A DNA stretch of 64,000 nt from positions 12,435-76,434 of the forward strand of contig CAZVXL010000004.1 of assembly GCA_964631595.1 (NCBI GenBank), read 5' to 3'. This DNA is from an uncultured Lachnospiraceae bacterium (GTDB taxonomy: Bacteria > Bacillota > Clostridia > Oscillospirales > CAG-272). Made by a program: the position numbers and the translations under genes. This document shows, in pieces, positions 2,980 through 56,377 of the stretch (the stretch's first letter is position 1; each line of letters begins with the position of its first letter). The notes beneath the pieces were generated by a model, which saw nothing but the letters and a program-made list of their open reading frames with translations, was not told the origin of the DNA and searched no databases.

Positions 2980-3008
2980 TTGACACGGGAGGATACACAG
3001 GATATAAT
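2980..3008 (+). promoter_or_regulatory. Consensus sigma-A promoter of the mdh-fumC-hdr-flx-frd operon
   Basis: TTGACA (2980-2985), 17-nt spacer, TATAAT (3003-3008). It is the only such element upstream of 11 co-directional, tightly packed genes. Confidence 0.65.
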
Positions 3009-3164
3009 ATATAATGAATATGTGTGGGCTTTGTGACATATTCGGTGTGATCCGACCTACTCGGATCAATGCAGGATACTGCGACCTCGGTATCCGTCCG
3101 CGTGTCGGGCGGATATACGATCCGGCTGTTTTACAGCCGAATTCAAATGAAAGTGAAAATGATT

Positions 3165-4112
3165 ATGAGCAACAAGGTTACTGTAATCGGCTCGGGAAGT
3201 GTCGGCTCCACGATCTCATATACGCTTGCCGTAAACGGGATCGCATCGGAGATAGTTATGATCGACATCAATGAGTCAAAGTCACTTGGCGAGGCTCTTG
3301 ACATCAGACAGGGGATACCCTTCTGCTCCCCCGCCTCAATTTACGCCGGCACATACAGAGATGCCGCCGGCTCGGACATCGTCATTCTTACCTCGGGTGC
3401 CGCGAGAAAGGCGGGGCAGTCGAGAATAGACCTTGCCCAGATCAACGTGGATATTACAAGATCCATAATACCGGAGCTTGTGAGATACGCACCGGACGCG
3501 GTGTACATCATCGTGTCGAATCCGGTCGATATCCTCACCTATCAGTTCTGTAAGACCTCGGGTCTCTCGGAACGCCAGATAATCGGCTCGGGTACGATAC
3601 TTGATACGGCAAGACTCCGCACAAGGCTGTCGGAGTATTACAACATAAGTCAGCAGAACGTTCATGCGTACGTGTTCGGTGAGCACGGCGATTCGTCGTT
3701 CGTGCCGTGGTCGAACGCGACCATTTCCAATATCGCGATAGACAAGTATGTCGATTGCCTCACGGAAAAGGATCAGCTGATCCCGCCCCTTGACTATGAG
3801 GAGGTGGAGACCTACATAAAGAGATCCGGCGGAAAGATCATCGAGCGAAAGGGCGCTACCTTCTACGCCGTTGCGGTGTCGGTGTGCCATATCTGCAAGT
3901 GTATCTTTACCGGCGCGGACACGACGATGACGGTGTCCACCATGATGCACGGCGAATACGGCGTTGAGGACGTGTGCCTCAGCTCACTCTGTATCGTGGG
4001 CAAGGACGGTATCGTCGGAAAGATAGTTGCGCCCCTGACGGCGGAGGAGGAAGAAAAGTTCCGCCACAGCGCACAGTGTCTGAGAGACGTTATAGACAGA
4101 ATAAACATCTGA
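3165..4112 (+). CDS. LDH/MDH-superfamily 2-hydroxyacid dehydrogenase on an LDH scaffold with Arg at the Gln102 specificity position (predicted malate dehydrogenase)
   Basis: VTVIGSGSVGS Rossmann motif, SNPVDILTY, GSGTILDTARLR and catalytic GEHGDS. SGAARKAGQSRIDL aligns to LDH AGANQKPGETRLDL. The start is uncertain: in-frame ATGs lie at 3147, 3159 and 3165, and the track ORF starts at 3069. Confidence 0.8.
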   Translation: MSNKVTVIGSGSVGSTISYTLAVNGIASEIVMIDINESKSLGEALDIRQGIPFCSPASIYAGTYRDAAGSDIVILTSGAARKAGQSRIDLAQINVDITRSIIPELVRYAPDAVYIIVSNPVDILTYQFCKTSGLSERQIIGSGTILDTARLRTRLSEYYNISQQNVHAYVFGEHGDSSFVPWSNATISNIAIDKYVDCLTEKDQLIPPLDYEEVETYIKRSGGKIIERKGATFYAVAVSVCHICKCIFTGADTTMTVSTMMHGEYGVEDVCLSSLCIVGKDGIVGKIVAPLTAEEEEKFRHSAQCLRDVIDRINI

Positions 4113-4140: not shown

Positions 4141-5517
4141 ATGAACTACCGCATTGAGCACGATTCCATGGGCGAGGTCAAGGTGCCTGCCGATAAGTAT
4201 TGGGGAGCGCAGACGGAGCGAAGCCATCGGAATTTCCCGATCGGCGTGGGACTTGAGGTTATGCCGAGGGAGATAACTGTGGCATTCGGTATATTGAAGA
4301 AGGCGGCGGCGAGAGCGAATAACAGGCTCGTCCCCGAGAGAATGACGGACGAAAAGCTGGCGGTGATCTCCGCTGCCTGCGATGAGGTCATCTCGGGTGA
4401 GCTTTTCCCGCATTTTCCGCTCGTTGTGTGGCAGACCGGAAGCGGCACGCAGTCCAACATGAACGCAAACGAGGTCATTGCCAACAGAGGAAACGAGCTT
4501 GCGGGCAAAAAGCTGCTTCATCCCAATGATGATATAAATATGAGCCAGTCGTCAAACGATACCTTCCCGACCGCCATGCACATATCGGCTGTGTGCGCGA
4601 TCGAGGATAAGGTGCTTCCCGCGGTGCGCCTGCTTATCAGCACGTTTCTGCGGCTTGAAGCCGAGAACGAGGGCATAGTAAAGAGCGGACGTACTCATTT
4701 GCAGGATGCGACTCCCATAAAGTTCTCTCAGGAAATCAGCGGATGGCGTGCATCTCTTGAGAGAGATGCGGAAATGCTTGAGCTCTCCCTCGGCGGACTG
4801 CGCGAGCTTGCGCTCGGCGGCACCGCCGTCGGAACAGGTCTGAATACGCCCGACGGCTTCGATACGGAGGTCGCGCGCGAGGTGTCCGCTCTCACGGGCA
4901 AGAGCTTTGTGACCGCCCCGAATAAGTTCCATGCGCTGACGAGCAAGGACGAGCTTGTGTTTGCACACGGCGCGCTGAAGGCTCTTGCCGCGGATATGAT
5001 GAAGATCGCAAACGACGTGAGATGGCTTGCCAGCGGCCCCAGAGACGGACTCGGAGAGATAACGATACCCGAGAACGAGCCCGGCTCCTCCATTATGCCC
5101 GGCAAGGTGAATCCCACGCAGTGTGAGGCGGTGACGATGGTCGCGGTTCAGGTAATGGGCAACGATACTGCTGTCGGCATTGCGGCATCTCAGGGAAATT
5201 TCGAGCTGAACGTGTTCATGCCGGTCTGTGCCTACAATTTCCTTCAGTCTGCGAGACTTCTTGCGGAGTCGATAGTTTCCTTCAATAACAGTTGTGCCGT
5301 CGGTATCAAGGCGAACAGAGAAAAAATGCACCACAACCTGCACAATTCTCTCATGCTCGTTACCGCGCTGAACCCGTATATCGGATACGAAAATGCGGCA
5401 AAGACCGCGAAAAAAGCATATAAGGACAACATCTCACTGAAGGAGGCCTGCGTCGAGCTCGGATTTTTGAGCGCGGAGCGCTTCGATGAGGTGTTCCATC
5501 CGGAAGAGATGGTCTGA
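4141..5517 (+). CDS. fumC: Class II fumarate hydratase
   Basis: 458 aa with the GSSIMPGKVNPTQCEA signature and the typical FumC N-terminus (RIEHDSMGEVKVPADKYWGAQTERS). Confidence 0.95.
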   Translation: MNYRIEHDSMGEVKVPADKYWGAQTERSHRNFPIGVGLEVMPREITVAFGILKKAAARANNRLVPERMTDEKLAVISAACDEVISGELFPHFPLVVWQTGSGTQSNMNANEVIANRGNELAGKKLLHPNDDINMSQSSNDTFPTAMHISAVCAIEDKVLPAVRLLISTFLRLEAENEGIVKSGRTHLQDATPIKFSQEISGWRASLERDAEMLELSLGGLRELALGGTAVGTGLNTPDGFDTEVAREVSALTGKSFVTAPNKFHALTSKDELVFAHGALKALAADMMKIANDVRWLASGPRDGLGEITIPENEPGSSIMPGKVNPTQCEAVTMVAVQVMGNDTAVGIAASQGNFELNVFMPVCAYNFLQSARLLAESIVSFNNSCAVGIKANREKMHHNLHNSLMLVTALNPYIGYENAAKTAKKAYKDNISLKEACVELGFLSAERFDEVFHPEEMV

Positions 5518-5540: not shown

Positions 5541-6326
5541 ATGATGACATACAGCTATTATCCGGGGTGTACCCTTAAAACCAAGGCAAAGGAGCTTGAC
5601 CGAAAGGGAAGGCTTGCCGCAGAGGCTCTCGGCATTACGCTTGAGGAGCTGCCGGAGTGGCAGTGCTGCGGCGGAGTATACACCATGGCAAGGGACGAGA
5701 TCGCCTCAAAGCTTGCATCGGTGAGAGCGCTTGCCGCGGCAAGAGAGCGCGGCGGCACTCTTGTCACCCTTTGCTCTGCCTGCCACAATGTTTTGAAGCA
5801 GGTCAACCGAGATATGAAGGAGCAGGGCGACATCTGCGACAGGGCAAATTCGTATATGAAGCTTGACATTCCGTACACCGGAGAGACGCAGGTCATACAT
5901 TATCTTGAGCTGCTCCGCGACAAAGTGGGCTTCGATGCGCTTGCGGAGGCTGTAAAGAAGCCGCTCGGTAAGAAGATCGGCGCATATTACGGTTGTCTCC
6001 TGCTTCGCCCAGCAAAGGTGATGCAGTTCGACGATCCCGAGGATCCGAGACTTATGGAGGAGCTTTTGCGAGCTCTCGGCGCGGAGCCGGTCATCTACGG
6101 TATGCGTAATGAGTGCTGCGGAGGCTATATGGCGACGGAGGATCCCGATGCCGCCGCAAAAAGAAGCGGTGACGTTATGGCGAACGCCGTCGGCGCGGGT
6201 GCCGAGGCGCTTATCACGGCGTGCCCACTCTGCCTCTACAATCTTACGAAAAATTCCGCATCGGGCGTACCGGTGTACTATTTTACGGAGCTTCTGTGCG
6301 AGGCTCTTGCGGCGGAGGTGCAGTGA
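5541..6326 (+). CDS. hdrB: Heterodisulfide-reductase subunit B-like protein (two CCG domains)
   Basis: Two complete C-x(n)-CC-x(n)-CxxC modules (PGC...QCCGG...CSAC and YGC...ECCGG...CPLC). AAGGAGA RBS. Confidence 0.85.
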   Translation: MMTYSYYPGCTLKTKAKELDRKGRLAAEALGITLEELPEWQCCGGVYTMARDEIASKLASVRALAAARERGGTLVTLCSACHNVLKQVNRDMKEQGDICDRANSYMKLDIPYTGETQVIHYLELLRDKVGFDALAEAVKKPLGKKIGAYYGCLLLRPAKVMQFDDPEDPRLMEELLRALGAEPVIYGMRNECCGGYMATEDPDAAAKRSGDVMANAVGAGAEALITACPLCLYNLTKNSASGVPVYYFTELLCEALAAEVQ

Positions 6327-6712
6327 TGAAATTCGAGAAAGAGCGTGAAGCGATAATCCGCATCAGCGGTGTGAACGTTCTGAAATGTATGAGATGCGGC
6401 AAATGCTCGGGCACGTGTCCCTCCTACGATGAGATGGAGTATCATCCTCACCAGTTTGTCTATATGGTGGAGAGGGGCGATATAGGGCCGCTCCTTGAAT
6501 CGGAGTCGATCTACAAGTGCCTCTCCTGCTTTGCCTGCGTGGAGCGCTGTCCGAGAGACGTCGAGCCGGCAAAGGTGATCGAGGCGGTCAGGCTTGTGAA
6601 GATAAGGGCGCAGGGCGCAAATCATATGAAGCCCGAGGACGTGCCCGATATGCTTGATCCCGAGCTCCCTCAGCAGGCGCTCGTAAGCTCCTTCAGAAAG
6701 TATGCGAAGTAG
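6326..6712 (+). CDS. hdrC: Heterodisulfide-reductase subunit C-like 2x[4Fe-4S] ferredoxin
   Basis: CMRCGKCSGTCP and CLSCFACVERCP motifs. Its ATG overlaps the hdrB stop (GTGATGA). The track ORF start at 6221 would overlap hdrB and is rejected. Confidence 0.8.
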   Translation: MKFEKEREAIIRISGVNVLKCMRCGKCSGTCPSYDEMEYHPHQFVYMVERGDIGPLLESESIYKCLSCFACVERCPRDVEPAKVIEAVRLVKIRAQGANHMKPEDVPDMLDPELPQQALVSSFRKYAK

Positions 6713-6730: not shown

Positions 6731-8722
6731 ATGCAGAGAATAGGCGTATTCGTGTGCCATTGCGGCACAAATATTGCCGGAACGGTCGATGTCGTTGCCG
6801 TTGCCGAGGCTCTGAGGAGCGAGGCGGGAGTCGTGATCTCCGAGGAGTATCAGTATATGTGCTCAGAGGCGGGACAGAACAAGATCAAGGATGCCATTCG
6901 GGATAATGCACTGACAGGTGTCGTGATCTGCTCCTGCTCTCCCAGAATGCATGAGGCAACCTTCCGAAAGACCGCCGCCGCCGCGGGCATCAACCCGTAC
7001 ATGGTGGAGATAGCGAATATCCGCGAGCAGGTATCGTGGATACATAAGGATAAAAACGAGGGAACGGAAAAGGCGATCATTCTCGGTCGCGCCGCTATCG
7101 CGAAGGTGCATCTCAATGCGCCGCTTCACGCGGGCGAGAGCCCCGTGACCAAGAGGGCGCTGGTGATCGGCGGAGGTATCGCCGGAATACAGACCGCGCT
7201 TGATATTGCCGAGGCGGGCTTCCCCGTGGATATAGTGGAAAAGAACCCGACTATAGGCGGCAAGATGACGCAGATAGATAAGACCTTCCCCACGCTTGAC
7301 TGTGCCGCCTGCATACTGACCCCGAAAATGGTGGATTGCGCGCAGAGTGACAAGATCCGCATCCTTGCCTACAGCGAGGTCGAGTCGGTGTCGGGCTTTG
7401 TCGGCAATTTTACCGCGAAGATCAGAAAAAAGGCAAGATACGTAGATGAGGTGAAATGCACCGGCTGCGGACTTTGCACCGAAAAGTGCCCGCAGAAGGC
7501 GATCCCGAACGAGTTCAATCTCGGAATGGATAACAGACGCGCGGTGTACATTCCCTTCGCTCAGGCGGTGCCGAAGGTCGCGACCATAGATCCCATGCAC
7601 TGCACGATGTTGAAAACGGGAAAATGCGGTGTTTGCTCCAAGGTGTGTACCGCAGGTGCGATAGACTATAAGCAGACGGATACGGTGATAAGCGAGCAGT
7701 ACGGCGCTATCGTGGTGGCTACGGGCTATAACCCGATAAAGCTTGACAGATTCGATGAATTTGCCTACAGTACCTCAAAGGACGTGGTGACGTCACTTGA
7801 GTTCGAGAGACTGACCAATGCCGCGGGACCCACCGCCGGCACGCTTCTCCGTCCCTCAGACGGAAAGCATCCGCATACGATAGTGTTCGTGCAGTGTGTC
7901 GGTAGCCGCGATACCTCGGGCTGCGGCAAGCAGTACTGCTCAAAGATATGCTGTATGTATACCGCAAAGCACGCGATGCTGGTGCGCGAGAAGTATCCGG
8001 ATACGGAGGTGTACGTATTCTATATCGACGTGCGTACCCCCGGAAAGAATTTCGATGAATTCTACCGCAGAGCCGTGGAGGAATACGGCGTGCATTACAT
8101 AAAGGGAATGGTCGGAAAGGTCGTGCCGGAGGCGGACGGAACTCTTACCGTTCGGGCATCGGATCTTATAGCGGGCGAGCAGCTCAAGATATCCGCGGAT
8201 ATGGTGGTGCTTGCCGCCGCCATCGAGCCGGACAGCAGTGCGAGACCGCTTGCGACCATGCTCACCGCAAGCATGGATACCAACGATTTCTTTACCGAGG
8301 CTCACCCGAAGCTCAGACCCGTGGAGAGCCCCACGGCGGGTATCTTCCTGTCGGGAGCGTGTCAGGGACCCAAGGATATTCCCGAGACCGTATCTCAGGC
8401 AAGTGCCGCCGCAGCGAAGGTCATAGGACTTCTTGCAAAGGACAGCCTGAAGGGCAATCCCTGTGTGGCACATTCCGATGAAATGATGTGTAACGGCTGC
8501 TCCTCGTGTGAGAGAGTGTGCCCCTACGGCGCTATCTCTTACGAGGATAAGGAATTCCGTATGCCCGACAGAACTACCGCGATACGCCGCGTGGCGGCGG
8601 TCAATCCCGCGGTATGCCAAGGCTGCGGAGCCTGTACCGTGGCGTGCCCGTCGGGTGCCATGGATCTTCGCGGCTTTACCAACAGACAGATCATGGCGGA
8701 GGTAGATGCAATATGCCGATGA
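6731..8722 (+). CDS. hdrA: Heterodisulfide-reductase subunit A-like FAD/Fe-S flavoprotein
   Basis: 663 aa. N-terminal VCHCGTNIAG, FAD fold VIGGGIAGIQTALDIAEAG, HdrA cluster motif CVGSRDTSGCGKQYCSKICC, inserted ferredoxin domain (CTGCGLCTEKCP, CGVCSKVCTAG) and C-terminal ferredoxin domain (CNGCSSCERVCP, CQGCGACTVACP). Confidence 0.9.
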   Translation: MQRIGVFVCHCGTNIAGTVDVVAVAEALRSEAGVVISEEYQYMCSEAGQNKIKDAIRDNALTGVVICSCSPRMHEATFRKTAAAAGINPYMVEIANIREQVSWIHKDKNEGTEKAIILGRAAIAKVHLNAPLHAGESPVTKRALVIGGGIAGIQTALDIAEAGFPVDIVEKNPTIGGKMTQIDKTFPTLDCAACILTPKMVDCAQSDKIRILAYSEVESVSGFVGNFTAKIRKKARYVDEVKCTGCGLCTEKCPQKAIPNEFNLGMDNRRAVYIPFAQAVPKVATIDPMHCTMLKTGKCGVCSKVCTAGAIDYKQTDTVISEQYGAIVVATGYNPIKLDRFDEFAYSTSKDVVTSLEFERLTNAAGPTAGTLLRPSDGKHPHTIVFVQCVGSRDTSGCGKQYCSKICCMYTAKHAMLVREKYPDTEVYVFYIDVRTPGKNFDEFYRRAVEEYGVHYIKGMVGKVVPEADGTLTVRASDLIAGEQLKISADMVVLAAAIEPDSSARPLATMLTASMDTNDFFTEAHPKLRPVESPTAGIFLSGACQGPKDIPETVSQASAAAAKVIGLLAKDSLKGNPCVAHSDEMMCNGCSSCERVCPYGAISYEDKEFRMPDRTTAIRRVAAVNPAVCQGCGACTVACPSGAMDLRGFTNRQIMAEVDAICR

Positions 8723-9159
8723 ATGAAAATAACGAGTTTCGTCCGTTGATAGTGGCATTCTGCTGTAACTGGTGCTCCTACGCCGGCGCAGACCTTGCGG
8801 GAACGAACCGTGCAGGATATCCGGCGGACGTGAAGATCATAAGAGTGCCGTGCTCCTGTCGTGTAAATCCCATGTTCATACTTAGAGCATTTCAGCGCGG
8901 AGCGGACGGCGTGATCGTGTGCGGCTGTCACCCCGGTGACTGCCACTACACGTCGGGCAACTATTATGCCAGAAGAAGAATGACCATGCTGTTCTCCATG
9001 CTTGATTACCTCGGCATCGAGAAGGAGCGCACAAGAGTGGAATGGATCTCCGCCGCCGAGGGCGCAAAGTTTGCCGCGACCATGAACGAATTTGTCGAGA
9101 CGGTGACACAGCTCGGCCCTAACAGGAGATTGGAGGACTTGAGATGCAGGAAAAACTGA
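8713..9159 (+). CDS. mvhD: MvhD/FlpD-like [2Fe-2S] protein (FlxD-like)
   Basis: IVAFCCNWCSY, VPCSCRVNP and VCGCHPGDCHY motifs. The ATG at 8713 overlaps the hdrA 3' end by 10 nt. The track ORF start at 8614 lies inside hdrA. Confidence 0.85.
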   Translation: MPMNENNEFRPLIVAFCCNWCSYAGADLAGTNRAGYPADVKIIRVPCSCRVNPMFILRAFQRGADGVIVCGCHPGDCHYTSGNYYARRRMTMLFSMLDYLGIEKERTRVEWISAAEGAKFAATMNEFVETVTQLGPNRRLEDLRCRKN

Positions 9160-10109
9160 TTTCGAGAGCTTCGGAGCTGCTCTCCTCCGGAGAGGTGGCA
9201 AGAGTTATCGGCTGGAAGCGCGGAGAGCTCGGCTACGATACGACTCCGGCGATATTCGAGAGCGCGGAGGAGCTGGAGAGAGATTTCGTGTACGGCGATT
9301 TCTGCGGCGCGAATCTGTCCAAATATTTGATAAAGAGCATGAGGAGCGAGGGCAAGACTCTTGTGATGCTGAAGCTGTGCGATACCTACAGCTTCAATCA
9401 GCTCCTCACGGAGCACAGGATAAGCCGCGATAAGACATACGTTATTGCGGTGGGCTGCGCCGGAATGGCGGATCCCGAGAGACTGCGTAGGCTCGGGATC
9501 ACCGGAATTACCGGAATCACGGGTGAGGGCGATAGCTTTGCAGTGTCCACCGTATACGGCGAGAGGACTGTGCCGAAGAAGGACTGCCTGTGCATAAAAT
9601 GCCTGTCCTGCAAGGGCGGCGAGCCGGTCGTGTACGATGAGATCATCGGCGGGGACATCACTCCTCCGAAGTTCGACGACCGCTTTGAGCAGGTACACGC
9701 GCTTGAGGCGATGAGCCCCGAGGAGAGATATGGATTCTGGAGAGGGGAGCTGTCACGCTGTATCAGATGTAACGCCTGCCGAAATGTTTGCCCCGCCTGC
9801 TCCTGCGAGAGCTGTGTGTTCGATAACCCGAATTCGGGCGTGGCACAGAAGGCGGCTGCCGACTCCTTTGAGGAGAATATGTTCCATATAATCAGAGCCT
9901 TCCACGTCGCCGGAAGATGCACCGATTGCGGAGAGTGCTCCAGAGTGTGCCCCGAGAGCATACCGCTCCATCTTCTGAACAGGAAGTTTATTTCCGATAT
10001 CGACAGCTATTACGGAAAGTATCAGGCGGGTGAGACCGAAGGGCAGAGAGCACCTCTTGTGGATTACACCGAGGACGATGCGGAGCCCTCCGCCATCTAT
10101 GACAGATAA
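9144..10109 (+). CDS. AsrA/HydB-type Fe-S protein (FlxC/FlxB-like), paralog 1
   Basis: 321 aa with CIRCNACRNVCPACSC (CxxCxxCxxxCPxCxC) and CTDCGECSRVCP. It overlaps the mvhD end by 16 nt and contains a GITGITGITG tract. Confidence 0.65.
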   Translation: MQEKLISRASELLSSGEVARVIGWKRGELGYDTTPAIFESAEELERDFVYGDFCGANLSKYLIKSMRSEGKTLVMLKLCDTYSFNQLLTEHRISRDKTYVIAVGCAGMADPERLRRLGITGITGITGEGDSFAVSTVYGERTVPKKDCLCIKCLSCKGGEPVVYDEIIGGDITPPKFDDRFEQVHALEAMSPEERYGFWRGELSRCIRCNACRNVCPACSCESCVFDNPNSGVAQKAAADSFEENMFHIIRAFHVAGRCTDCGECSRVCPESIPLHLLNRKFISDIDSYYGKYQAGETEGQRAPLVDYTEDDAEPSAIYDR

Positions 10110-10120
10110 GGGGGAGAGAT

Positions 10121-11137
10121 ATGTATTTTCTTAAAAAAGACAGACTGAGCGAGCTTTTTGCGGCTCTCTCCGCAGACTCGGCTCTTTATCTTCCCGCAAA
10201 GAATAAGGACGGCAAGACAGATTACGTGCGGTATACCGACGGGGTGGAATACAGCGATGCGCTCAATACGGAGCGCAGTGCCAAGGATTTCTTCTTCCCC
10301 CAGACGGAGGATATCGCGGATTTCAGAGTGGACGGAAAGAGCATCGAGGTGATAGACATTCGCCGTGAGCACGAGGATTACGTGATCTTCGGTGTGCGCG
10401 CCTGCGATATGGCAAGCTTTGATATTCTTGATTCCGTGTACCTGTCCGAGCCGATCGACAGCTATTATGCCGAGAGGCGCAGTCATGCGACTGTCATGAC
10501 GGTCGCTTGCCGTACTCCCGCGGAGACGTGCTTCTGCCGATGCTTCGGCATAGATCCCGCCGCTCCGGGCGGAGATGTGGCTTGTGCTCTCAGTGACAGC
10601 GGACTTTACCTTGAGGTAAGGACCGAAAAGGGAGAGGCACTGATCGGAAAGGTATCCCATATGCTTGAAGAGACCGACGGCGCGGAGGCGGCGGAGCAGG
10701 GAAAGCGGTGTCATGAGCTGATGGACAGACTCCCCCTTGCCGGACTCACCCCCGATGCCTTCGGCGGCGAGCGAATGATGGAGCATTTTTCCTCGGAGAA
10801 ATGGGCGTCCCTCTCCGAGGCGTGTCTCGGCTGCGGCACCTGCACCTTTGTGTGCCCCACCTGCCAGTGCTACGATATAAGAGATTTCGATACAGGAAGC
10901 GGCATAAGGCGTTTCCGTTGCTGGGATAGCTGTATGTATTCCGATTTCACGAAAATGGCTCACGGCAACTCCCGAAACAGTCAGCTTGAAAGATTCAGAC
11001 AGCGCTTCATGCACAAGCTTATGTACTATCCCGCAAACAACGACGGCAAATTCGGCTGTGTCGGCTGCGGCAGATGCCTGTCCAAGTGCCCCATCTCCAT
11101 GAATATCGTCAAGGTGATGAAGGCGCTTGGAGACTGA
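10121..11137 (+). CDS. Anaerobic sulfite reductase subunit A-like / sulfhydrogenase beta-like Fe-S protein (FlxB/FlxC-like), paralog 2
   Basis: 338 aa with CLGCGTCTFVCPTCQCYD and CVGCGRCLSKCP, and the AsrA-like N-terminal part (VIFGVRACD, FCRCFG). Confidence 0.7.
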   Translation: MYFLKKDRLSELFAALSADSALYLPAKNKDGKTDYVRYTDGVEYSDALNTERSAKDFFFPQTEDIADFRVDGKSIEVIDIRREHEDYVIFGVRACDMASFDILDSVYLSEPIDSYYAERRSHATVMTVACRTPAETCFCRCFGIDPAAPGGDVACALSDSGLYLEVRTEKGEALIGKVSHMLEETDGAEAAEQGKRCHELMDRLPLAGLTPDAFGGERMMEHFSSEKWASLSEACLGCGTCTFVCPTCQCYDIRDFDTGSGIRRFRCWDSCMYSDFTKMAHGNSRNSQLERFRQRFMHKLMYYPANNDGKFGCVGCGRCLSKCPISMNIVKVMKALGD

Positions 11138-11167: not shown

Positions 11168-11995
11168 ATGTATAACGAAACACTTATTCCGAGTATAGGA
11201 GTCATCACCGATATAAGGCAGGATACTCCGGACGTCAAGACCTTCCGAGTAGTCACGCCCGACGGAAAAAAGCCCTTCGTCCATATCCCCGGACAGTGCG
11301 CCATGCTCTCCGTCCCCGGAGTCGGAGAGGCGATGTTCTCAATAACCTCATCTCCCACGAATACCGAATTCTTTGAATTTTCCATAAAAAAGTGCGGCTG
11401 TCTCACGGATTGGCTTCACCGAATGGAGGTCGGTCAGCAGATAACGATCAGAGGCCCCTACGGAAACGGCTTCCCCGTGGATACCGTCCTCAAGGGCAAG
11501 GATCTGCTTTTCATTGCGGGAGGAATAGGACTTGCGCCCCTGCGCTCCGTGATAAACTATGTCCGCGACAGGAGAGAGAATTACGGTCGGGTGCAGATAG
11601 TCTACGGCTCACGCTCCATGGACGATCTCGTGGATTATGAGGAGATAATCGGTGAGTGGTCGAAGGATCCCGACGTCGAGGTGGCTCTGACGATAGACAG
11701 AGAGCAAGAGGGATGGAACGGACACGTCGGCTTCGTCCCGAGCTATGTGAAGGAGCTCTCCCCCGATATCTCAAGAACGGTGCTTGTCTGCGGCCCTCCG
11801 ATCATGATAAAGTTCACGCTTGCATCTCTGAAGGAGCTGGGCTTTACGGAGACGCAGGTGTTTACCACGATGGAGCTTCGCATGAAGTGCGGTGTCGGCA
11901 AGTGCGGCAGATGCAATATAGGCTCACGGTACGTTTGCAAGGACGGGCCGGTGTTCCGTTATGATGAGCTGTCGGAGCTGCCCGATGAGTATTGA
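11168..11995 (+). CDS. AsrB/PyrK/sulfhydrogenase-gamma-like FAD/NAD(P)H oxidoreductase with C-terminal [2Fe-2S] (FlxA-like)
   Basis: 275 aa. FNR-like fold (FVHIPGQCAMLS, FSITSSP, LLFIAGGIGLAPLRS, VLVCGPPIM) and a C-terminal CGVGKCGRCNIG...C cluster. Confidence 0.8.
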   Translation: MYNETLIPSIGVITDIRQDTPDVKTFRVVTPDGKKPFVHIPGQCAMLSVPGVGEAMFSITSSPTNTEFFEFSIKKCGCLTDWLHRMEVGQQITIRGPYGNGFPVDTVLKGKDLLFIAGGIGLAPLRSVINYVRDRRENYGRVQIVYGSRSMDDLVDYEEIIGEWSKDPDVEVALTIDREQEGWNGHVGFVPSYVKELSPDISRTVLVCGPPIMIKFTLASLKELGFTETQVFTTMELRMKCGVGKCGRCNIGSRYVCKDGPVFRYDELSELPDEY

Positions 11996-12043: not shown

Positions 12044-12718
12044 ATGGAAAACACGGTAAATATATTTCTTATGGGTAAAAGGTATGCGGTTCCCGAGAGC
12101 CTGACCATAATGAGGGCTATGGAATACGCGGGCTATGAGCTTGTTCGCGGCTGCGGCTGCAGAAACGGCTTCTGCGGAGCCTGCGCGACCGTTTACCGCA
12201 TAAAGGGCGAGAGCGAGCTTCACGCCTGCCTTGCCTGCCAGACGAAGGTCGAGGAGGGTATGTACATAGCGACACTGCCCTTCTTCCCGCTTGTCAAGAA
12301 GGTATATGATATCGAGAAGATCGGCCCCACCGAGCAGATCATGATGCAGCTTTATCCCGAGATATACGCCTGCATAGGCTGTAATGCCTGCACAAAGGCG
12401 TGTACGCAGGGACTTAACGTAATGCAGTATATCGCATATGCGCAGAGGGGCGAGTACGAGAAGTGCGCGGAGGAATCCTTTGACTGCGTAATGTGCGGAG
12501 TATGCTCATCGAGATGCCCTGCCGGAATTTCCCATCCGCAGGTGGCGCTTCTTGCAAGACGTCTTAACGGAAAGTATCTTGCGCCCGCAAGCGAGCATCT
12601 TGAAAACAGAGTTCGCGAGATCGAGAACGGCACCTTTGAGGAGCTTATCGAGGGACTTATGCAGAAGCCCTTGGCTGAGCTGAAGGAGCTGTACAACACA
12701 AGAGATATCGAGAAGTAA
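12044..12718 (+). CDS. Succinate dehydrogenase/fumarate reductase iron-sulfur subunit-like protein ([2Fe-2S] plus two full 4-Cys motifs)
   Basis: 224 aa with CGCRNGFCGACAT...C, CIGCNACTKAC and CVMCGVCSSRCP. Confidence 0.7.
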   Translation: MENTVNIFLMGKRYAVPESLTIMRAMEYAGYELVRGCGCRNGFCGACATVYRIKGESELHACLACQTKVEEGMYIATLPFFPLVKKVYDIEKIGPTEQIMMQLYPEIYACIGCNACTKACTQGLNVMQYIAYAQRGEYEKCAEESFDCVMCGVCSSRCPAGISHPQVALLARRLNGKYLAPASEHLENRVREIENGTFEELIEGLMQKPLAELKELYNTRDIEK

Positions 12719-12730
12719 GGAGGATTCAAA

Positions 12731-14329
12731 ATGTATACTGCCGAAATGCTTGAATCCATGAAAAGGGTGGAGGCGAGGCGCGCCGAAAACGCGGCGCTTG
12801 AGCCGCGCAGAATGACTGCCGAGGAAAAGGAGGCTCTCCTTGCGGCATATCATCCGGATCACAAGAAAAGCGAATTTTCCGTTCTGAAGATCGGAGCGAA
12901 CAAGGGTGAGGAGGTTCCTCACGAGCTTGCAGCACTCCTTCAGGGCAAAAGCCGCATCACCGCATCCTCGGTGAACCTTGATGCGCCCGATTACGATGTT
13001 GACGTGCTTGTGATCGGCGGCGGCGGAGCGGGCTCCTCTGCGGCGATCGAGGCACACGCCGCCGGAGCGAACGTGATGATAGTCACAAAGCTCAGAATAG
13101 GCGATGCGAATACCATGATGGCTGAGGGCGGAATCCAAGCCGCTGACAAGGAGAACGATTCTCCCGCCATTCACTATCTTGATGCCTTCGGAGGCGGACA
13201 CTTTGCCGCCAAGCCCTCACTTCTGAAAAGGCTTGTTACGGAGGCTCCCGAGGCTATTATGTGGCTGAATGAGCTCGGAGTGGAGTTTGACAAGGACGAA
13301 AACGGCACTATGGTCACCACGCACGGCGGCGGCACATCGAGGAAAAGAATGCACGCGGCAAAGGATTATTCCGGCGCCGAGATCATGCGTACTCTCCGCG
13401 ATGAGGTGCTGAACCGCGAGATACCCGTGGTCGATTTCACCTCTGCCATTGAGCTTATTCTTGATGAAAACGGACACGCCGCCGGAGCGGTGCTCCTCAA
13501 TATGGAGACGGATGAGCTTCTTGTGGCGAGAGCGAAAACGGTCATAATCGCCACGGGCGGAGCCGGCAGACTCCATTATCAGGGCTTCCCCACATCGAAT
13601 CATTACGGAGCTACGGCGGACGGACTTGTGCTTGCATACAGAGCGGGCGCAAAGCTCATGTATCCGGATACTCTCCAGTATCACCCCACGGGTGCCGCCT
13701 TCCCCGAGCAGATCTTCGGTGCGCTCGTTACGGAGAAGGTGCGCTCTCTCGGAGCAAAGCTCATCAACGCCAACGGCGAGGCATTCATGCATCCTCTTGA
13801 GACGCGTGACGTCTCGGCGGCTTCGATCATTCGCGAGTGCGGCGACAGAGGAAACGGTGTAAAAACCGCCGACGGCGTGGGAGTTTGGCTTGATACTCCC
13901 ATGATCGAGCTCAAGAACGGCGAGGGAACGATCGAGGCGCGTATCCCCGCGATGATGCGTATGTTCGGAAAGTACGGAATAGATATCAGGCGCGAGCCTA
14001 TCCTCGTTTATCCGACACTGCACTATCAGAACGGCGGAATTGATATCGAGCCCGACGGGCAGAGTGCGATCTCGGGTCTGTTTGTCGCGGGCGAGGCTGT
14101 TGGAGGAATCCACGGACGTAACAGACTTATGGGTAACTCCCTCCTTGACATTATCGTATTCGGAAGAAGCGCCGGCAAGAATGCCGCGGCACTTGCGAAG
14201 GATACGACTCTCGGTGCGCTCACGCTGGAACACATCGAGGCGTTCGAAAAGGAACGCGCAGCGGCAGGTATCACCGATACCGTGGTATCTCCGAAGCTGC
14301 TTCCCTCGTATGCGAGAAAGAAGAACTGA
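12731..14329 (+). CDS. Fumarate reductase/succinate dehydrogenase/L-aspartate oxidase-family flavoprotein; soluble, predicted non-covalent FAD
   Basis: 532 aa with DVLVIGGGGAGSSAA, LQYHPTG, LVTEKVRSLG, LHYQNGGI and GLFVAGEAVGGIHGRNRLMGNSLLD. Asn (13109-13111) replaces the covalent-FAD His. About 88 aa of N-terminal extension. Confidence 0.8.
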   Translation: MYTAEMLESMKRVEARRAENAALEPRRMTAEEKEALLAAYHPDHKKSEFSVLKIGANKGEEVPHELAALLQGKSRITASSVNLDAPDYDVDVLVIGGGGAGSSAAIEAHAAGANVMIVTKLRIGDANTMMAEGGIQAADKENDSPAIHYLDAFGGGHFAAKPSLLKRLVTEAPEAIMWLNELGVEFDKDENGTMVTTHGGGTSRKRMHAAKDYSGAEIMRTLRDEVLNREIPVVDFTSAIELILDENGHAAGAVLLNMETDELLVARAKTVIIATGGAGRLHYQGFPTSNHYGATADGLVLAYRAGAKLMYPDTLQYHPTGAAFPEQIFGALVTEKVRSLGAKLINANGEAFMHPLETRDVSAASIIRECGDRGNGVKTADGVGVWLDTPMIELKNGEGTIEARIPAMMRMFGKYGIDIRREPILVYPTLHYQNGGIDIEPDGQSAISGLFVAGEAVGGIHGRNRLMGNSLLDIIVFGRSAGKNAAALAKDTTLGALTLEHIEAFEKERAAAGITDTVVSPKLLPSYARKKN

Positions 14330-14346
14330 GCCTTATAAATACGAAA

Positions 14347-14374
14347 CGGCGGGAGGACGACTGTCCTCCCGCCG
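14347..14374. terminator. Bidirectional hairpin terminator between the frd-like gene and yigZ
   Basis: CGGCGGGAGGAC-GACT-GTCCTCCCGCCG: a perfect 12-bp GC-rich stem between convergent genes. Confidence 0.7.
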
Positions 14375-14415
14375 TGTTGCTTTGTGACTGTATCACAGGC
14401 GCGTGCGATGTGCGC

Positions 14416-55118: not shown

Positions 55119-56377
55119 TGAAGCGTGATCTTGATGTTGCCGTGATCGGCGCGGGAGCTGCCGGAATGATGGCGGCGATAAGCGCGGCGCGCGAGGGAGC
55201 GTCGGTCGCGGTGTTTGAAAAGAATACCCGAACGGGAAGAAAGCTGCGGATCACGGGCAAGGGACGGTGCAATGTCACAAACAACTGCACCGTGCAGGAG
55301 TTTATGAGCGCCGTGCCGGAAAACTCCAAATTCCTGTACAGCGCCCTTGCGGGATTTTCGCCCTCGGATACAATGAGCTTTTTCGAGGAGCACGGAGTAC
55401 CGCTGAAAACGGAGCGTGGCAGGAGAGTGTTTCCCGTGTCCGACAATGCCCACGATATAGCGGGTGCGCTTGAGCGCGCGGCGGCTGAGGTGGGCGTGGA
55501 AACGGTGCTCGGATGTGATGTGACCTCACTGCTCAGTGAGGAGGCGGACGGCAAGGTGCGCGTTACGGGAATCGTCGCGGGCGGCAGAAGGATAGACGCG
55601 CGCGCGGTGATCGTCGCGACCGGCGGCGTGTCGTATCCCGCAACGGGCTCCACGGGAGACGGCTACCGATTTGCGGAAAGGCTCGGGCTGAAGGTGATCC
55701 CGCCGATGCCGTCACTGATACCGATCGTTACGGCGGAGCCGACCTCACATCTCTCAGGGCTGACGCTGAAAAACGTGGTGCTGTCCGTGAATGACAGAAG
55801 AGGTCGCGCCGTCTTTTCGGAGATGGGCGAGATGCTGTTTACTCATTTCGGACTGTCCGGTCCGCTTGTTTTGTCCGCATCGGCGCATATGCGTGACGGC
55901 GCGGAGGCTTATACGGTGCATATCGACCTGAAGCCCGCGCTTGACGAAAAAACGCTTGATGCCAGATTGGTGTCCGATTTTTCGCAGTGCTCTGCGAAGA
56001 ATTTCTCGAATTCTCTCTCAAAGCTCCTGCCGCGAACGCTTATCCCCGAGGTGATCGAGCGATCGGGCATATCTCCGTACAAAAAGACCTCGGAGGTGAC
56101 CAAGGCGGAGCGGCGCAGACTTTTGGAGCTACTGAAGGATCTTGAATTTACTCCCACGGGCTTTCGACCCGTCGATGAGGCGATAGTCACCCGAGGCGGA
56201 ATTGATACTGCGGCGATAAAGCCCTCCACGATGGAGTCAAGAGCTGTCGGCGGACTGTATTTTGCCGGCGAGGTGATAGATACGGATGCTTATACCGGCG
56301 GATATAACCTTCAGATCGCATTTGCCACGGGCAGACTTGCGGGAAGGTCTGCCGGCAGGCAGAGTACGGGCGAATAG
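55118..56377 (+). CDS. HI0933/BaiN-like NAD(P)/FAD-dependent oxidoreductase
   Basis: VAVIGAGAAGMMAA, ITGKGRCNVTN, and the C-terminal GGLYFAGEVIDTDAYTGGYNLQIAF. Confidence 0.8.
   Translation: MKRDLDVAVIGAGAAGMMAAISAAREGASVAVFEKNTRTGRKLRITGKGRCNVTNNCTVQEFMSAVPENSKFLYSALAGFSPSDTMSFFEEHGVPLKTERGRRVFPVSDNAHDIAGALERAAAEVGVETVLGCDVTSLLSEEADGKVRVTGIVAGGRRIDARAVIVATGGVSYPATGSTGDGYRFAERLGLKVIPPMPSLIPIVTAEPTSHLSGLTLKNVVLSVNDRRGRAVFSEMGEMLFTHFGLSGPLVLSASAHMRDGAEAYTVHIDLKPALDEKTLDARLVSDFSQCSAKNFSNSLSKLLPRTLIPEVIERSGISPYKKTSEVTKAERRRLLELLKDLEFTPTGFRPVDEAIVTRGGIDTAAIKPSTMESRAVGGLYFAGEVIDTDAYTGGYNLQIAFATGRLAGRSAGRQSTGE

Follow-up and report, generated by a model that had tools for sequence, protein, structure and literature searches.

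The 64,000-nucleotide stretch analysed here (contig CAZVXL010000004.1 of an uncultured Lachnospiraceae bacterium; hereafter the window) raised the question of which kind of fumarate reductase is encoded by its gene pair frdB-frdA and from where the enzyme would obtain its electrons. The products are an iron-sulfur (Fe-S) subunit, FrdB (P0001), and a flavoprotein, FrdA (P0002), which a reading made from the letters alone (the sequence-only reading) had described as a split TfrAB with no membrane anchor. On balance, we favour the view that FrdBA would be the soluble terminal reductase of a succinate operon, fed by an NADH-oxidising, bifurcating Flx-Hdr complex; its electrons probably come from the Flx-Hdr encoded just upstream.

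HMMER alignment with solved SdhA and FrdA chains placed Asn127 of FrdA on the histidine that carries covalent FAD ('gdaNtmmaegg' against 'gkaHtvmaegg' in 7d6v, the SdhA of M. smegmatis Sdh1, and 'trsHtvsaqgg' in 1nek, E. coli SdhA). His318-Pro-Thr and Thr334-Glu335 were aligned with residues of the dicarboxylate site, and the proton shuttle Arg338, His431 in the HYxxGGI motif and Arg465 in HGxNRL were all aligned correctly. Residues N127, H318, E335, R338, H431 and R465 were invariant in 9/9 representatives of the clade to which FrdA was assigned, with identities down to 39%. Every dicarboxylate-site residue named in the sequence-only reading had its counterpart in the solved chains, its active-site Arg and His assignments were not misaligned, and the Asn that it had noticed in place of the covalent-FAD histidine was kept throughout the clade representatives. 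The FAD of FrdA is predicted from the sequence to be non-covalently bound. The claim that this is typical of Tfr agreed with the true TfrA of the data set (P0217; 765 bits, cut-off 718), which has Gly/Cys at the same position.

FrdA differed from TfrA at both ends. The extension of approximately 88 residues at the N-terminus, pointed out earlier as unusual, started from an ATG 7 nt behind a ribosome-binding site (AGGAGG) and was conserved among homologues, with the motifs HPD(Y/H) and G-x-N-x-G-E. An AlphaFold2 model of FrdA from a 38-row alignment had a pLDDT of 77.8 and a pTM of 0.81, with pLDDT values of 77-96 over the first 88 residues, while a single-sequence model with a pLDDT of 33 was discarded. 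The extension is a real and conserved part of the protein and is predicted to be folded. The best Foldseek matches of the model were E. coli FrdA (1kf6_A) and M. smegmatis Sdh1 (7d6v_A) with TM scores of 0.64-0.67. At the other end, FrdA stopped approximately 40 residues past the FAD domain and covered only positions 6-413 of the 546 positions of the TfrA profile and residues 4-416 of E. coli FrdA; it therefore lacks the C-terminal helical and C-terminal domains.

In FrdB, whose ATG follows a ribosome-binding site (AAGGAG) by 10 nt, 13 cysteines were conserved in 16-17 of 17 diverse homologues (C37, C39, C44, C47 and C65; C110, C113, C116 and C120; C148, C151, C154 and C158). The third motif, CxxCxxCxxxCP, kept its four cysteines in 17/17 homologues; in classical FrdB/SdhB this motif has three cysteines and binds a [3Fe-4S] cluster. 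The 13 positions fit one [2Fe-2S] and two complete [4Fe-4S] sites, which bears out the three full cysteine clusters described earlier, with the distal [2Fe-2S] ligand corrected to C65 because C62 was kept in only 3/17 homologues. TfrB also holds one [2Fe-2S] and two [4Fe-4S] clusters. The C-terminal tail of FrdB was conserved as well and ended in RDIE. A natural FrdB-FrdA fusion of 727 aa (P0124, in the representative library), with the FrdB part N-terminal, was 56% identical to FrdA; it was among the 17 FrdB homologues compared and had all 13 positions occupied, with His replacing C37. Its domain arrangement supports FrdB and FrdA acting as one unit.

The pair shares with E. coli FrdABCD/SdhABCD the flavoprotein fold, the dicarboxylate-site residues and the N-terminal [2Fe-2S] domain. 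Unlike these classical quinol:fumarate and succinate:quinone reductases, it has no anchor and no C-terminal helical domain, and its gene order is B then A. No stretch of 19 residues with a Kyte-Doolittle mean of at least 1.6 was present in any operon protein and no anchor gene was found downstream of frdA, where the terminator is followed by genes on the opposite strand, a UPF0029/IMPACT-like gene among them; the earlier statement that there is no anchor was confirmed in this way. In addition, the genome (assembly of 1.87 Mb, 87% complete) was searched for a prenyltransferase of the UbiA/MenA type, as used for making quinones, and none was found. Classical quinone-linked enzymes were rejected on these grounds together with the missing covalent-FAD histidine and the missing 3-Cys [3Fe-4S] motif.

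Comparison with NCBIfam models showed 343.6 bits for FrdA against the TfrA equivalog NF004900 (cut-off 718), 283 bits against sdhA_frdA (cut-off 567) and 270.5 bits against nadB TIGR00551 (cut-off 452.75), while FrdB scored 38.6 bits against TfrB NF004898 (cut-off 385) over profile positions 19-149 and had no CCG domain; neither protein reached the cut-off of any of these four models. A maximum-likelihood tree was built from FrdA and 62 full-length representatives of 50%-identity clusters, with clades labelled with NCBIfam. FrdA was placed in a clade whose members share the N-terminal extension, and the sister of this clade consisted of flavoproteins of approximately 405 aa without the extension and without the C-terminal domain. 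Together these formed a group of 21 rows (SH-aLRT 96; Shimodaira-Hasegawa-like approximate likelihood-ratio test) apart from the NadB clade and from the Sdh/Frd/Tfr clade, in which the true TfrA P0217 was found. Approximately unbiased (AU) tests rejected joining the N-extension clade with the TfrA-like rows (p = 2.6e-5) and with NadB (p = 0.0075), the groups used in both tests having been named only after the tree had been seen. The sister flavoproteins (P0159, P0160, P0167, P0186, P0189-P0191, P0194, P0208 and P0238) reached no NCBIfam cut-off, and in most of them the residue at the covalent-FAD position was Asn or Lys. The N-extension clade also had members in metagenome-assembled genomes (MAGs) of marine Gammaproteobacteria/Thiotrichales and in Prochlorococcus sp. 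MIT 1201 (P0129 and P0136 clusters). Overall, FrdA is assigned to a separate clade defined by its N-terminal extension and is neither TfrA nor NadB nor classical FrdA.

The description as a split TfrAB therefore stands in part. As a functional analogy it holds, for the pair is anchor-less, lacks the covalent-FAD histidine and has 4-Cys clusters; as a statement of descent it does not, and membership in TfrA was rejected by the profile score, the separate clade and the AU test. The TfrAB of Methanothermobacter (Heim et al. 1998) resembles the pair of the window in being soluble, in its association with CCG chemistry and in lacking the covalent-FAD histidine (in the TfrA-equivalog representative). 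Differently from the window, where the CCG domains reside on a separate HdrB, TfrB has them fused to the Fe-S subunit; in TfrA the C-terminal domain is present and the N-terminal extension absent, with FrdA the reverse on both counts. FrdB, HdrC and HdrB of the window tiled the TfrB profile at positions 19-149, 127-218 and 264-486. Clostridia are not expected to contain CoM-SH and CoB-SH, the electron donors of Tfr. The further proposal that the function of the CCG domains of TfrB is supplied by the separate HdrB gains from the fact that no CCG-domain protein other than HdrB was found in the genome, but HdrB was far closer to HdrB (140 bits) and to SdhE, a subunit of methylmenaquinol:fumarate reductase (127 bits), than to the C-terminus of TfrB (35 bits). 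Nor is hdrB simply a gene 6 kb away, as it had been presented; it is one of seven Flx-Hdr genes of the same operon.

That the flavoprotein is an L-aspartate oxidase, or a reductase of another enoate, is scarcely probable at all. Database names of its homologues were inconsistent ('FAD-dependent oxidoreductase', 'L-aspartate oxidase' and others). The use of 'L-aspartate oxidase' for some of them would suit NadB, as would the score given by the nadB model and the fact that no full-length FAD_binding_2 protein besides FrdA was found in the genome. A Glu in the motif xE(G/A)(G/A)HS was present in 10/10 representatives of the NadB clade, presumably E121 of E. coli NadB, and this column is His198 in FrdA and variable across its clade. 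The nadB score stayed below the cut-off, FrdA was not nested among the L-aspartate oxidases in the tree, NadA and NadC (QRPTase) were not found in the genome, and in the closest loci frdA was always paired with the Fe-S subunit and linked to fumarase and Mdh. The L-aspartate oxidase assignment was rejected on the cut-off, the missing NadA and NadC, His198 and the AU test. A second, partial match to FAD_binding_2 (46.8 bits, profile positions 1-244) was located at window positions 55133-55702 in an ORF of 420 aa, which by its score is no Frd/Sdh-type flavoprotein.

The plus strand between the promoter-like site and the terminator-like hairpin held a single promoter, a single terminator and tightly spaced genes, and frdBA are read from this arrangement as the last two genes of a putative 11-gene operon, mdh-fumC-hdrB-hdrC-hdrA-mvhD-flxC-flxB-flxA-frdB-frdA (Table 1). 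The ORF of mdh opens at 3069, and an internal Met (MSNKV...) just before the Pfam Ldh_1_N match was chosen as its start.

Table 1. Features of the frdBA operon and its flanks, in coordinates of the window.
Feature	Position	Strand	Basis
Promoter-like site upstream of mdh	2980..3008	+	TTGACA-17-TATAAT, 12/12 matches
Malate/lactate dehydrogenase family protein (mdh)	3165..4112	+	Ldh_1_N + Ldh_1_C
Class II fumarate hydratase (fumC)	4141..5517	+	Lyase_1 + FumaraseC_C
HdrB-like protein, two complete CCG domains	5541..6326	+	Domain and profile matches
HdrC-like 2x[4Fe-4S] ferredoxin subunit	6326..6712	+	Domain and profile matches
HdrA-like flavoprotein, presumed bifurcating FAD subunit	6731..8722	+	788 bits to HdrA2 model, cut-off 1100
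MvhD/FlxD-like [2Fe-2S] subunit	8713..9159	+	Pfam FlpD
FlxC-like Fe-S protein	9144..10109	+	Domain and profile matches
FlxB-like Fe-S protein, similar to AsrA and sulfhydrogenase beta	10121..11137	+	Fer4_22
FlxA-like NAD(P)H-binding flavoprotein	11168..11995	+	FAD_binding_6, NAD_binding_1, DHODB Fe-S domain
FrdB-like Fe-S subunit, 224 aa (P0001)	12044..12718	+	Profile matches, Cys conservation
FrdB [2Fe-2S] Cys	12152-12238	+	
FrdB first 4-Cys motif	12371-12403	+	
FrdB second 4-Cys motif	12485-12517	+	
FrdA-like flavoprotein, 532 aa (P0002)	12731..14329	+	FAD_binding_2, residues 91-471, E = 2.8e-69
FrdA N-terminal extension, 88 aa, clade-specific, predicted folded	12731..12994	+	
FrdA Asn127 codon, at the covalent-FAD histidine position	13109..13111	+	
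Terminator-like hairpin 3' of frdA	14346..14375	+	13-bp stem, 10 GC pairs

In a species-level collection, at least 579 genomes carried a stretch that encodes a relative, and gene order was compared in the best 80 loci (L001-L080). These showed FrdA identities of 77-84%, belonged mostly to gut and rumen Oscillospirales MAGs, and all kept the 11-gene order wherever the contig extended far enough. FrdA, FrdB, HdrA, MvhD and FumC were the most conserved proteins across the 80 loci (approximately 74-91% identity), while HdrB, FlxC and FlxB were more variable (50-70%). Protein clusters at 90% identity numbered more than 8000, and a profile search for diverse relatives gave mostly approximately 74-99% identity and a few at 66-70%. 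Approximately 40 of 401 sampled genomes of the phylum carried a full-length FrdA homologue with 51-77% identity, after which the next-best matches dropped sharply to ≤41% identity and started near residue 85. Overall, the combination of a soluble Frd with Flx-Hdr is common in gut Clostridia.

The wider genome included RnfD and GTP-PEPCK, while ATP-PEPCK, methylmalonyl-CoA mutase and DsrC were not found in it. The picture suggested by this gene content is of a quinone-free fermenter that would form succinate from PEP and use reduced ferredoxin through Rnf. The operon would provide the route from oxaloacetate to malate, fumarate and succinate. FlxA would oxidise NADH and pass electrons through FlxB, FlxC and FlxD to the FAD of HdrA, where the electron pair would be bifurcated, the low-potential electron going to ferredoxin and the high-potential electron to HdrC, the CCG clusters of HdrB, FrdB and the FAD of FrdA, and then to fumarate. 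FrdB would feed FrdA through its one [2Fe-2S] and two [4Fe-4S] clusters, and fumarate would be reduced at the non-covalent FAD. FrdBA would thus hold the place that heterodisulfide or DsrC has in other Hdr systems, and with Rnf re-oxidising the reduced ferredoxin a quinone-free fermenter would conserve energy from fumarate reduction. We infer a physical contact of HdrB with FrdB, NADH as the donor and the co-reduction of ferredoxin. Since the operon encodes HdrB as part of a seven-gene Flx-Hdr set, NADH via the bifurcating complex is a likelier donor than free thiols. The standard potentials are -320 mV for NADH, +33 mV for fumarate and approximately -450 mV for ferredoxin, and they allow bifurcation by Flx-Hdr-Frd. 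A partnership of an HdrB-like protein with SdhAB has a precedent in SdhE of methylmenaquinol:fumarate reductase, to which HdrB of the window scored 127 bits. A more specific proposal, that no disulfide substrate is involved and that a new class of flavin-based electron bifurcation has fumarate as its high-potential acceptor (2 NADH + fumarate + 2 Fd(ox) -> succinate + 2 Fd(red)) via direct transfer from HdrB to FrdB, is put forward tentatively and with slightly less than even confidence.

Two other arrangements of the same subunits were considered. Flx-Hdr could be a mere conduit in a non-bifurcating soluble NADH:fumarate reductase, with no ferredoxin reduced. Electron transfer from NADH to fumarate is strongly exergonic by itself, the operon has no ferredoxin gene and HdrA stayed under the curated HdrA cut-offs (788 vs 1100 bits). 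However, a seven-subunit module with HdrA and MvhD is costly in comparison with simple NADH:fumarate reductases, these two proteins were among the best conserved of the operon and Rnf, which could use reduced ferredoxin, is present, so that this arrangement is judged unlikely. A shuttle of thiols as in Tfr is judged quite unlikely. Here Flx-Hdr would reduce ferredoxin and a disulfide, either a small molecule or a protein, and a CCG site would then oxidise the resulting thiols again and so drive FrdAB, without an Fe-S wire running directly between Hdr and Frd. HdrB does retain both complete CCG motifs, as bind the disulfide-reducing clusters in methanogen Hdr, and clusters of hdrCB-frdBA without HdrA exist in Desulfofundulus; the electrons of Flx-Hdr were also described as going 'to ferredoxin (and thiols)' (PMC7282089). 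Such a shuttle would nevertheless be futile because FrdB itself lacks a CCG domain and the single HdrB would both reduce and re-oxidise the carrier. Moreover, no DsrC was found in the genome and no carrier gene in the operon, and CCG proteins such as SdhE operate without disulfides. CoM and CoB are not known from Clostridia, which also counts against the shuttle.

Twenty more distant FrdA loci of the phylum were fetched for comparison of their neighbourhoods, and frdB-frdA were paired in 18 of them. Phascolarctobacterium succinatutens had the full hdrBCA-mvhD-flxCBA-frdBA (L115:5503-14599) with a FrdA 68% identical to P0002. Desulfofundulus spp. and one other genome had only hdrC-hdrB-frdB-frdA and encoded neither HdrA nor Flx close by (L118:3992-7576 and L121:3992-7597, minus strand), a gene layout that reads as a literal 'split Tfr'. 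Natranaerobius thermophilus and one other genome had frdBA-hdrBCA-mvhD. In some Bacillota (L130:2972-3958, L131, L132 and L133), frdBA adjoined a gene for a 328-aa protein with a 4Fe-4S dicluster domain and a cytochrome b561 (Ni_hydr_CYTB) membrane domain, which looks like a membrane-anchored variant of the FrdBA module, and FMN_bind/Fe-S membrane proteins were a further type of partner. Class I fumarase, malic enzyme, SucC or DctM was often encoded near the distant relatives. FrdBA is, on this gene-neighbourhood evidence, a putative portable fumarate/succinate module, and HdrB/HdrC would be its most direct recurrent soluble partner, to which the relatives that adjoin hdrCB alone or hdrBCA-mvhD point. 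In addition, a second N-extension FrdA paralogue without FrdB was found in Natranaerofaba carboxydovora (L126:2317-7330) and one further genome (L128), adjoining MmgE/PrpD-family and AtuA-like genes; these paralogues may act on a different substrate.

Several of these observations weigh against a terminal reductase that is fed by Flx-Hdr and forms succinate. Many relatives (Megasphaera, Natranaerofaba and others) carried frdBA without Hdr nearby, and since some of them had a cytochrome-b/Fe-S membrane protein instead, the FrdBA module is not tied to Hdr. The N-terminal extension of FrdA and the C-terminal tail of FrdB were both kept in Hdr-less relatives and are therefore not Hdr-docking elements, a role for which they had been considered and were rejected. 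P. succinatutens is known to consume succinate, and a pathway that forms it is unexpected there. Finally, the genome absences are provisional because of the incomplete assembly. The physiology of the relatives also bears on a reversed direction, in which FrdBA would be a succinate dehydrogenase passing electrons to Hdr, as relatives occur in the succinate-consuming Phascolarctobacterium and in Desulfofundulus. The latter are sulfate reducers and propionate oxidisers. Such a direction is very improbable for the window: at +33 mV, succinate could reduce NAD+ or ferredoxin only if much energy were supplied, mdh and fumC are the first genes of the operon, and PEPCK is encoded in the genome, with methylmalonyl-CoA mutase not found. 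E. coli FrdA variants at His44, which bind FAD non-covalently, reportedly still reduce fumarate and no longer oxidise succinate.

A link between Flx-Hdr and Frd is not a new idea, and FlxABCD-HdrABC of Desulfovibrio vulgaris is reportedly proposed to carry out NADH-dependent bifurcation to ferredoxin. That complex (Ramos et al. 2015) has the same seven subunit types as the window, where the order hdrBCA-flxDCBA is reversed in comparison. Its proposed high-potential acceptor is DsrC, in place of which the operon of the window has FrdBA. In Pseudoclostridium thermosuccinogenes, a 'succinate operon' of fumarate hydratase, seven Flx-Hdr genes and a two-gene fumarate reductase was described (Koendjbiharie et al. 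2020, PMC7282089). As described there, its architecture is like that of the window in operon content, in GTP-PEPCK feeding the pathway and in Rnf; the operon of the window differs in having mdh as its first gene and in lacking a transporter gene downstream. That fumarate reduction is coupled by bifurcation to the reduction of ferredoxin was proposed in a 2019 preprint (10.20944/preprints201912.0288.v1) cited by PMC7282089. In tubeworm symbionts and Thioflavicoccus mobilis, tfrAB were found interspersed with flxABCD-hdrABC in gene clusters of the reductive tricarboxylic acid (rTCA) cycle, and direct electron shuttling was proposed (Rubin-Blum et al. 2019, PMC6315080). The symbionts resemble the window in the genomic linkage of a putative soluble Tfr-like pair to Flx-Hdr, but they are Gammaproteobacteria with an autotrophic rTCA cycle and OGOR in the cluster, and the window has a fermentative reductive branch in Clostridia. 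The gammaproteobacterial members of the N-extension clade (P0129 and P0136) may correspond to this 'tfrAB'. In the literature searched, no biochemical test of either proposal was found and no paper contained the phrase 'bifurcating fumarate reductase'. An Flx-Hdr-linked Frd was already proposed in 2019-2020; this locus confirms the gene layout behind that proposal, and what is added here is the anatomy of FrdBA, namely the distinct clade, the N-terminal extension, the loss of the C-terminal domain, the cysteine ligands and the range of partners.

If FrdBA is indeed fed by bifurcating Flx-Hdr, quinone-free gut Clostridia would gain energy from fumarate as butyrate producers do from crotonyl-CoA, by bifurcation and then Rnf, and there would be an Hdr complex with an enzyme-bound Fe-S chain, not a disulfide, as its acceptor. 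Because homologues of FrdA are annotated inconsistently, succinate production by the taxa that carry the operon is probably under-called in metabolic reconstructions. With carriers in hundreds of Oscillospirales species of gut and rumen, the operon, built around a distinct clade of flavoproteins that have the N-terminal extension and no C-terminal domain, would then be a major and so far uncounted energy-conserving route to succinate in quinone-free gut bacteria.

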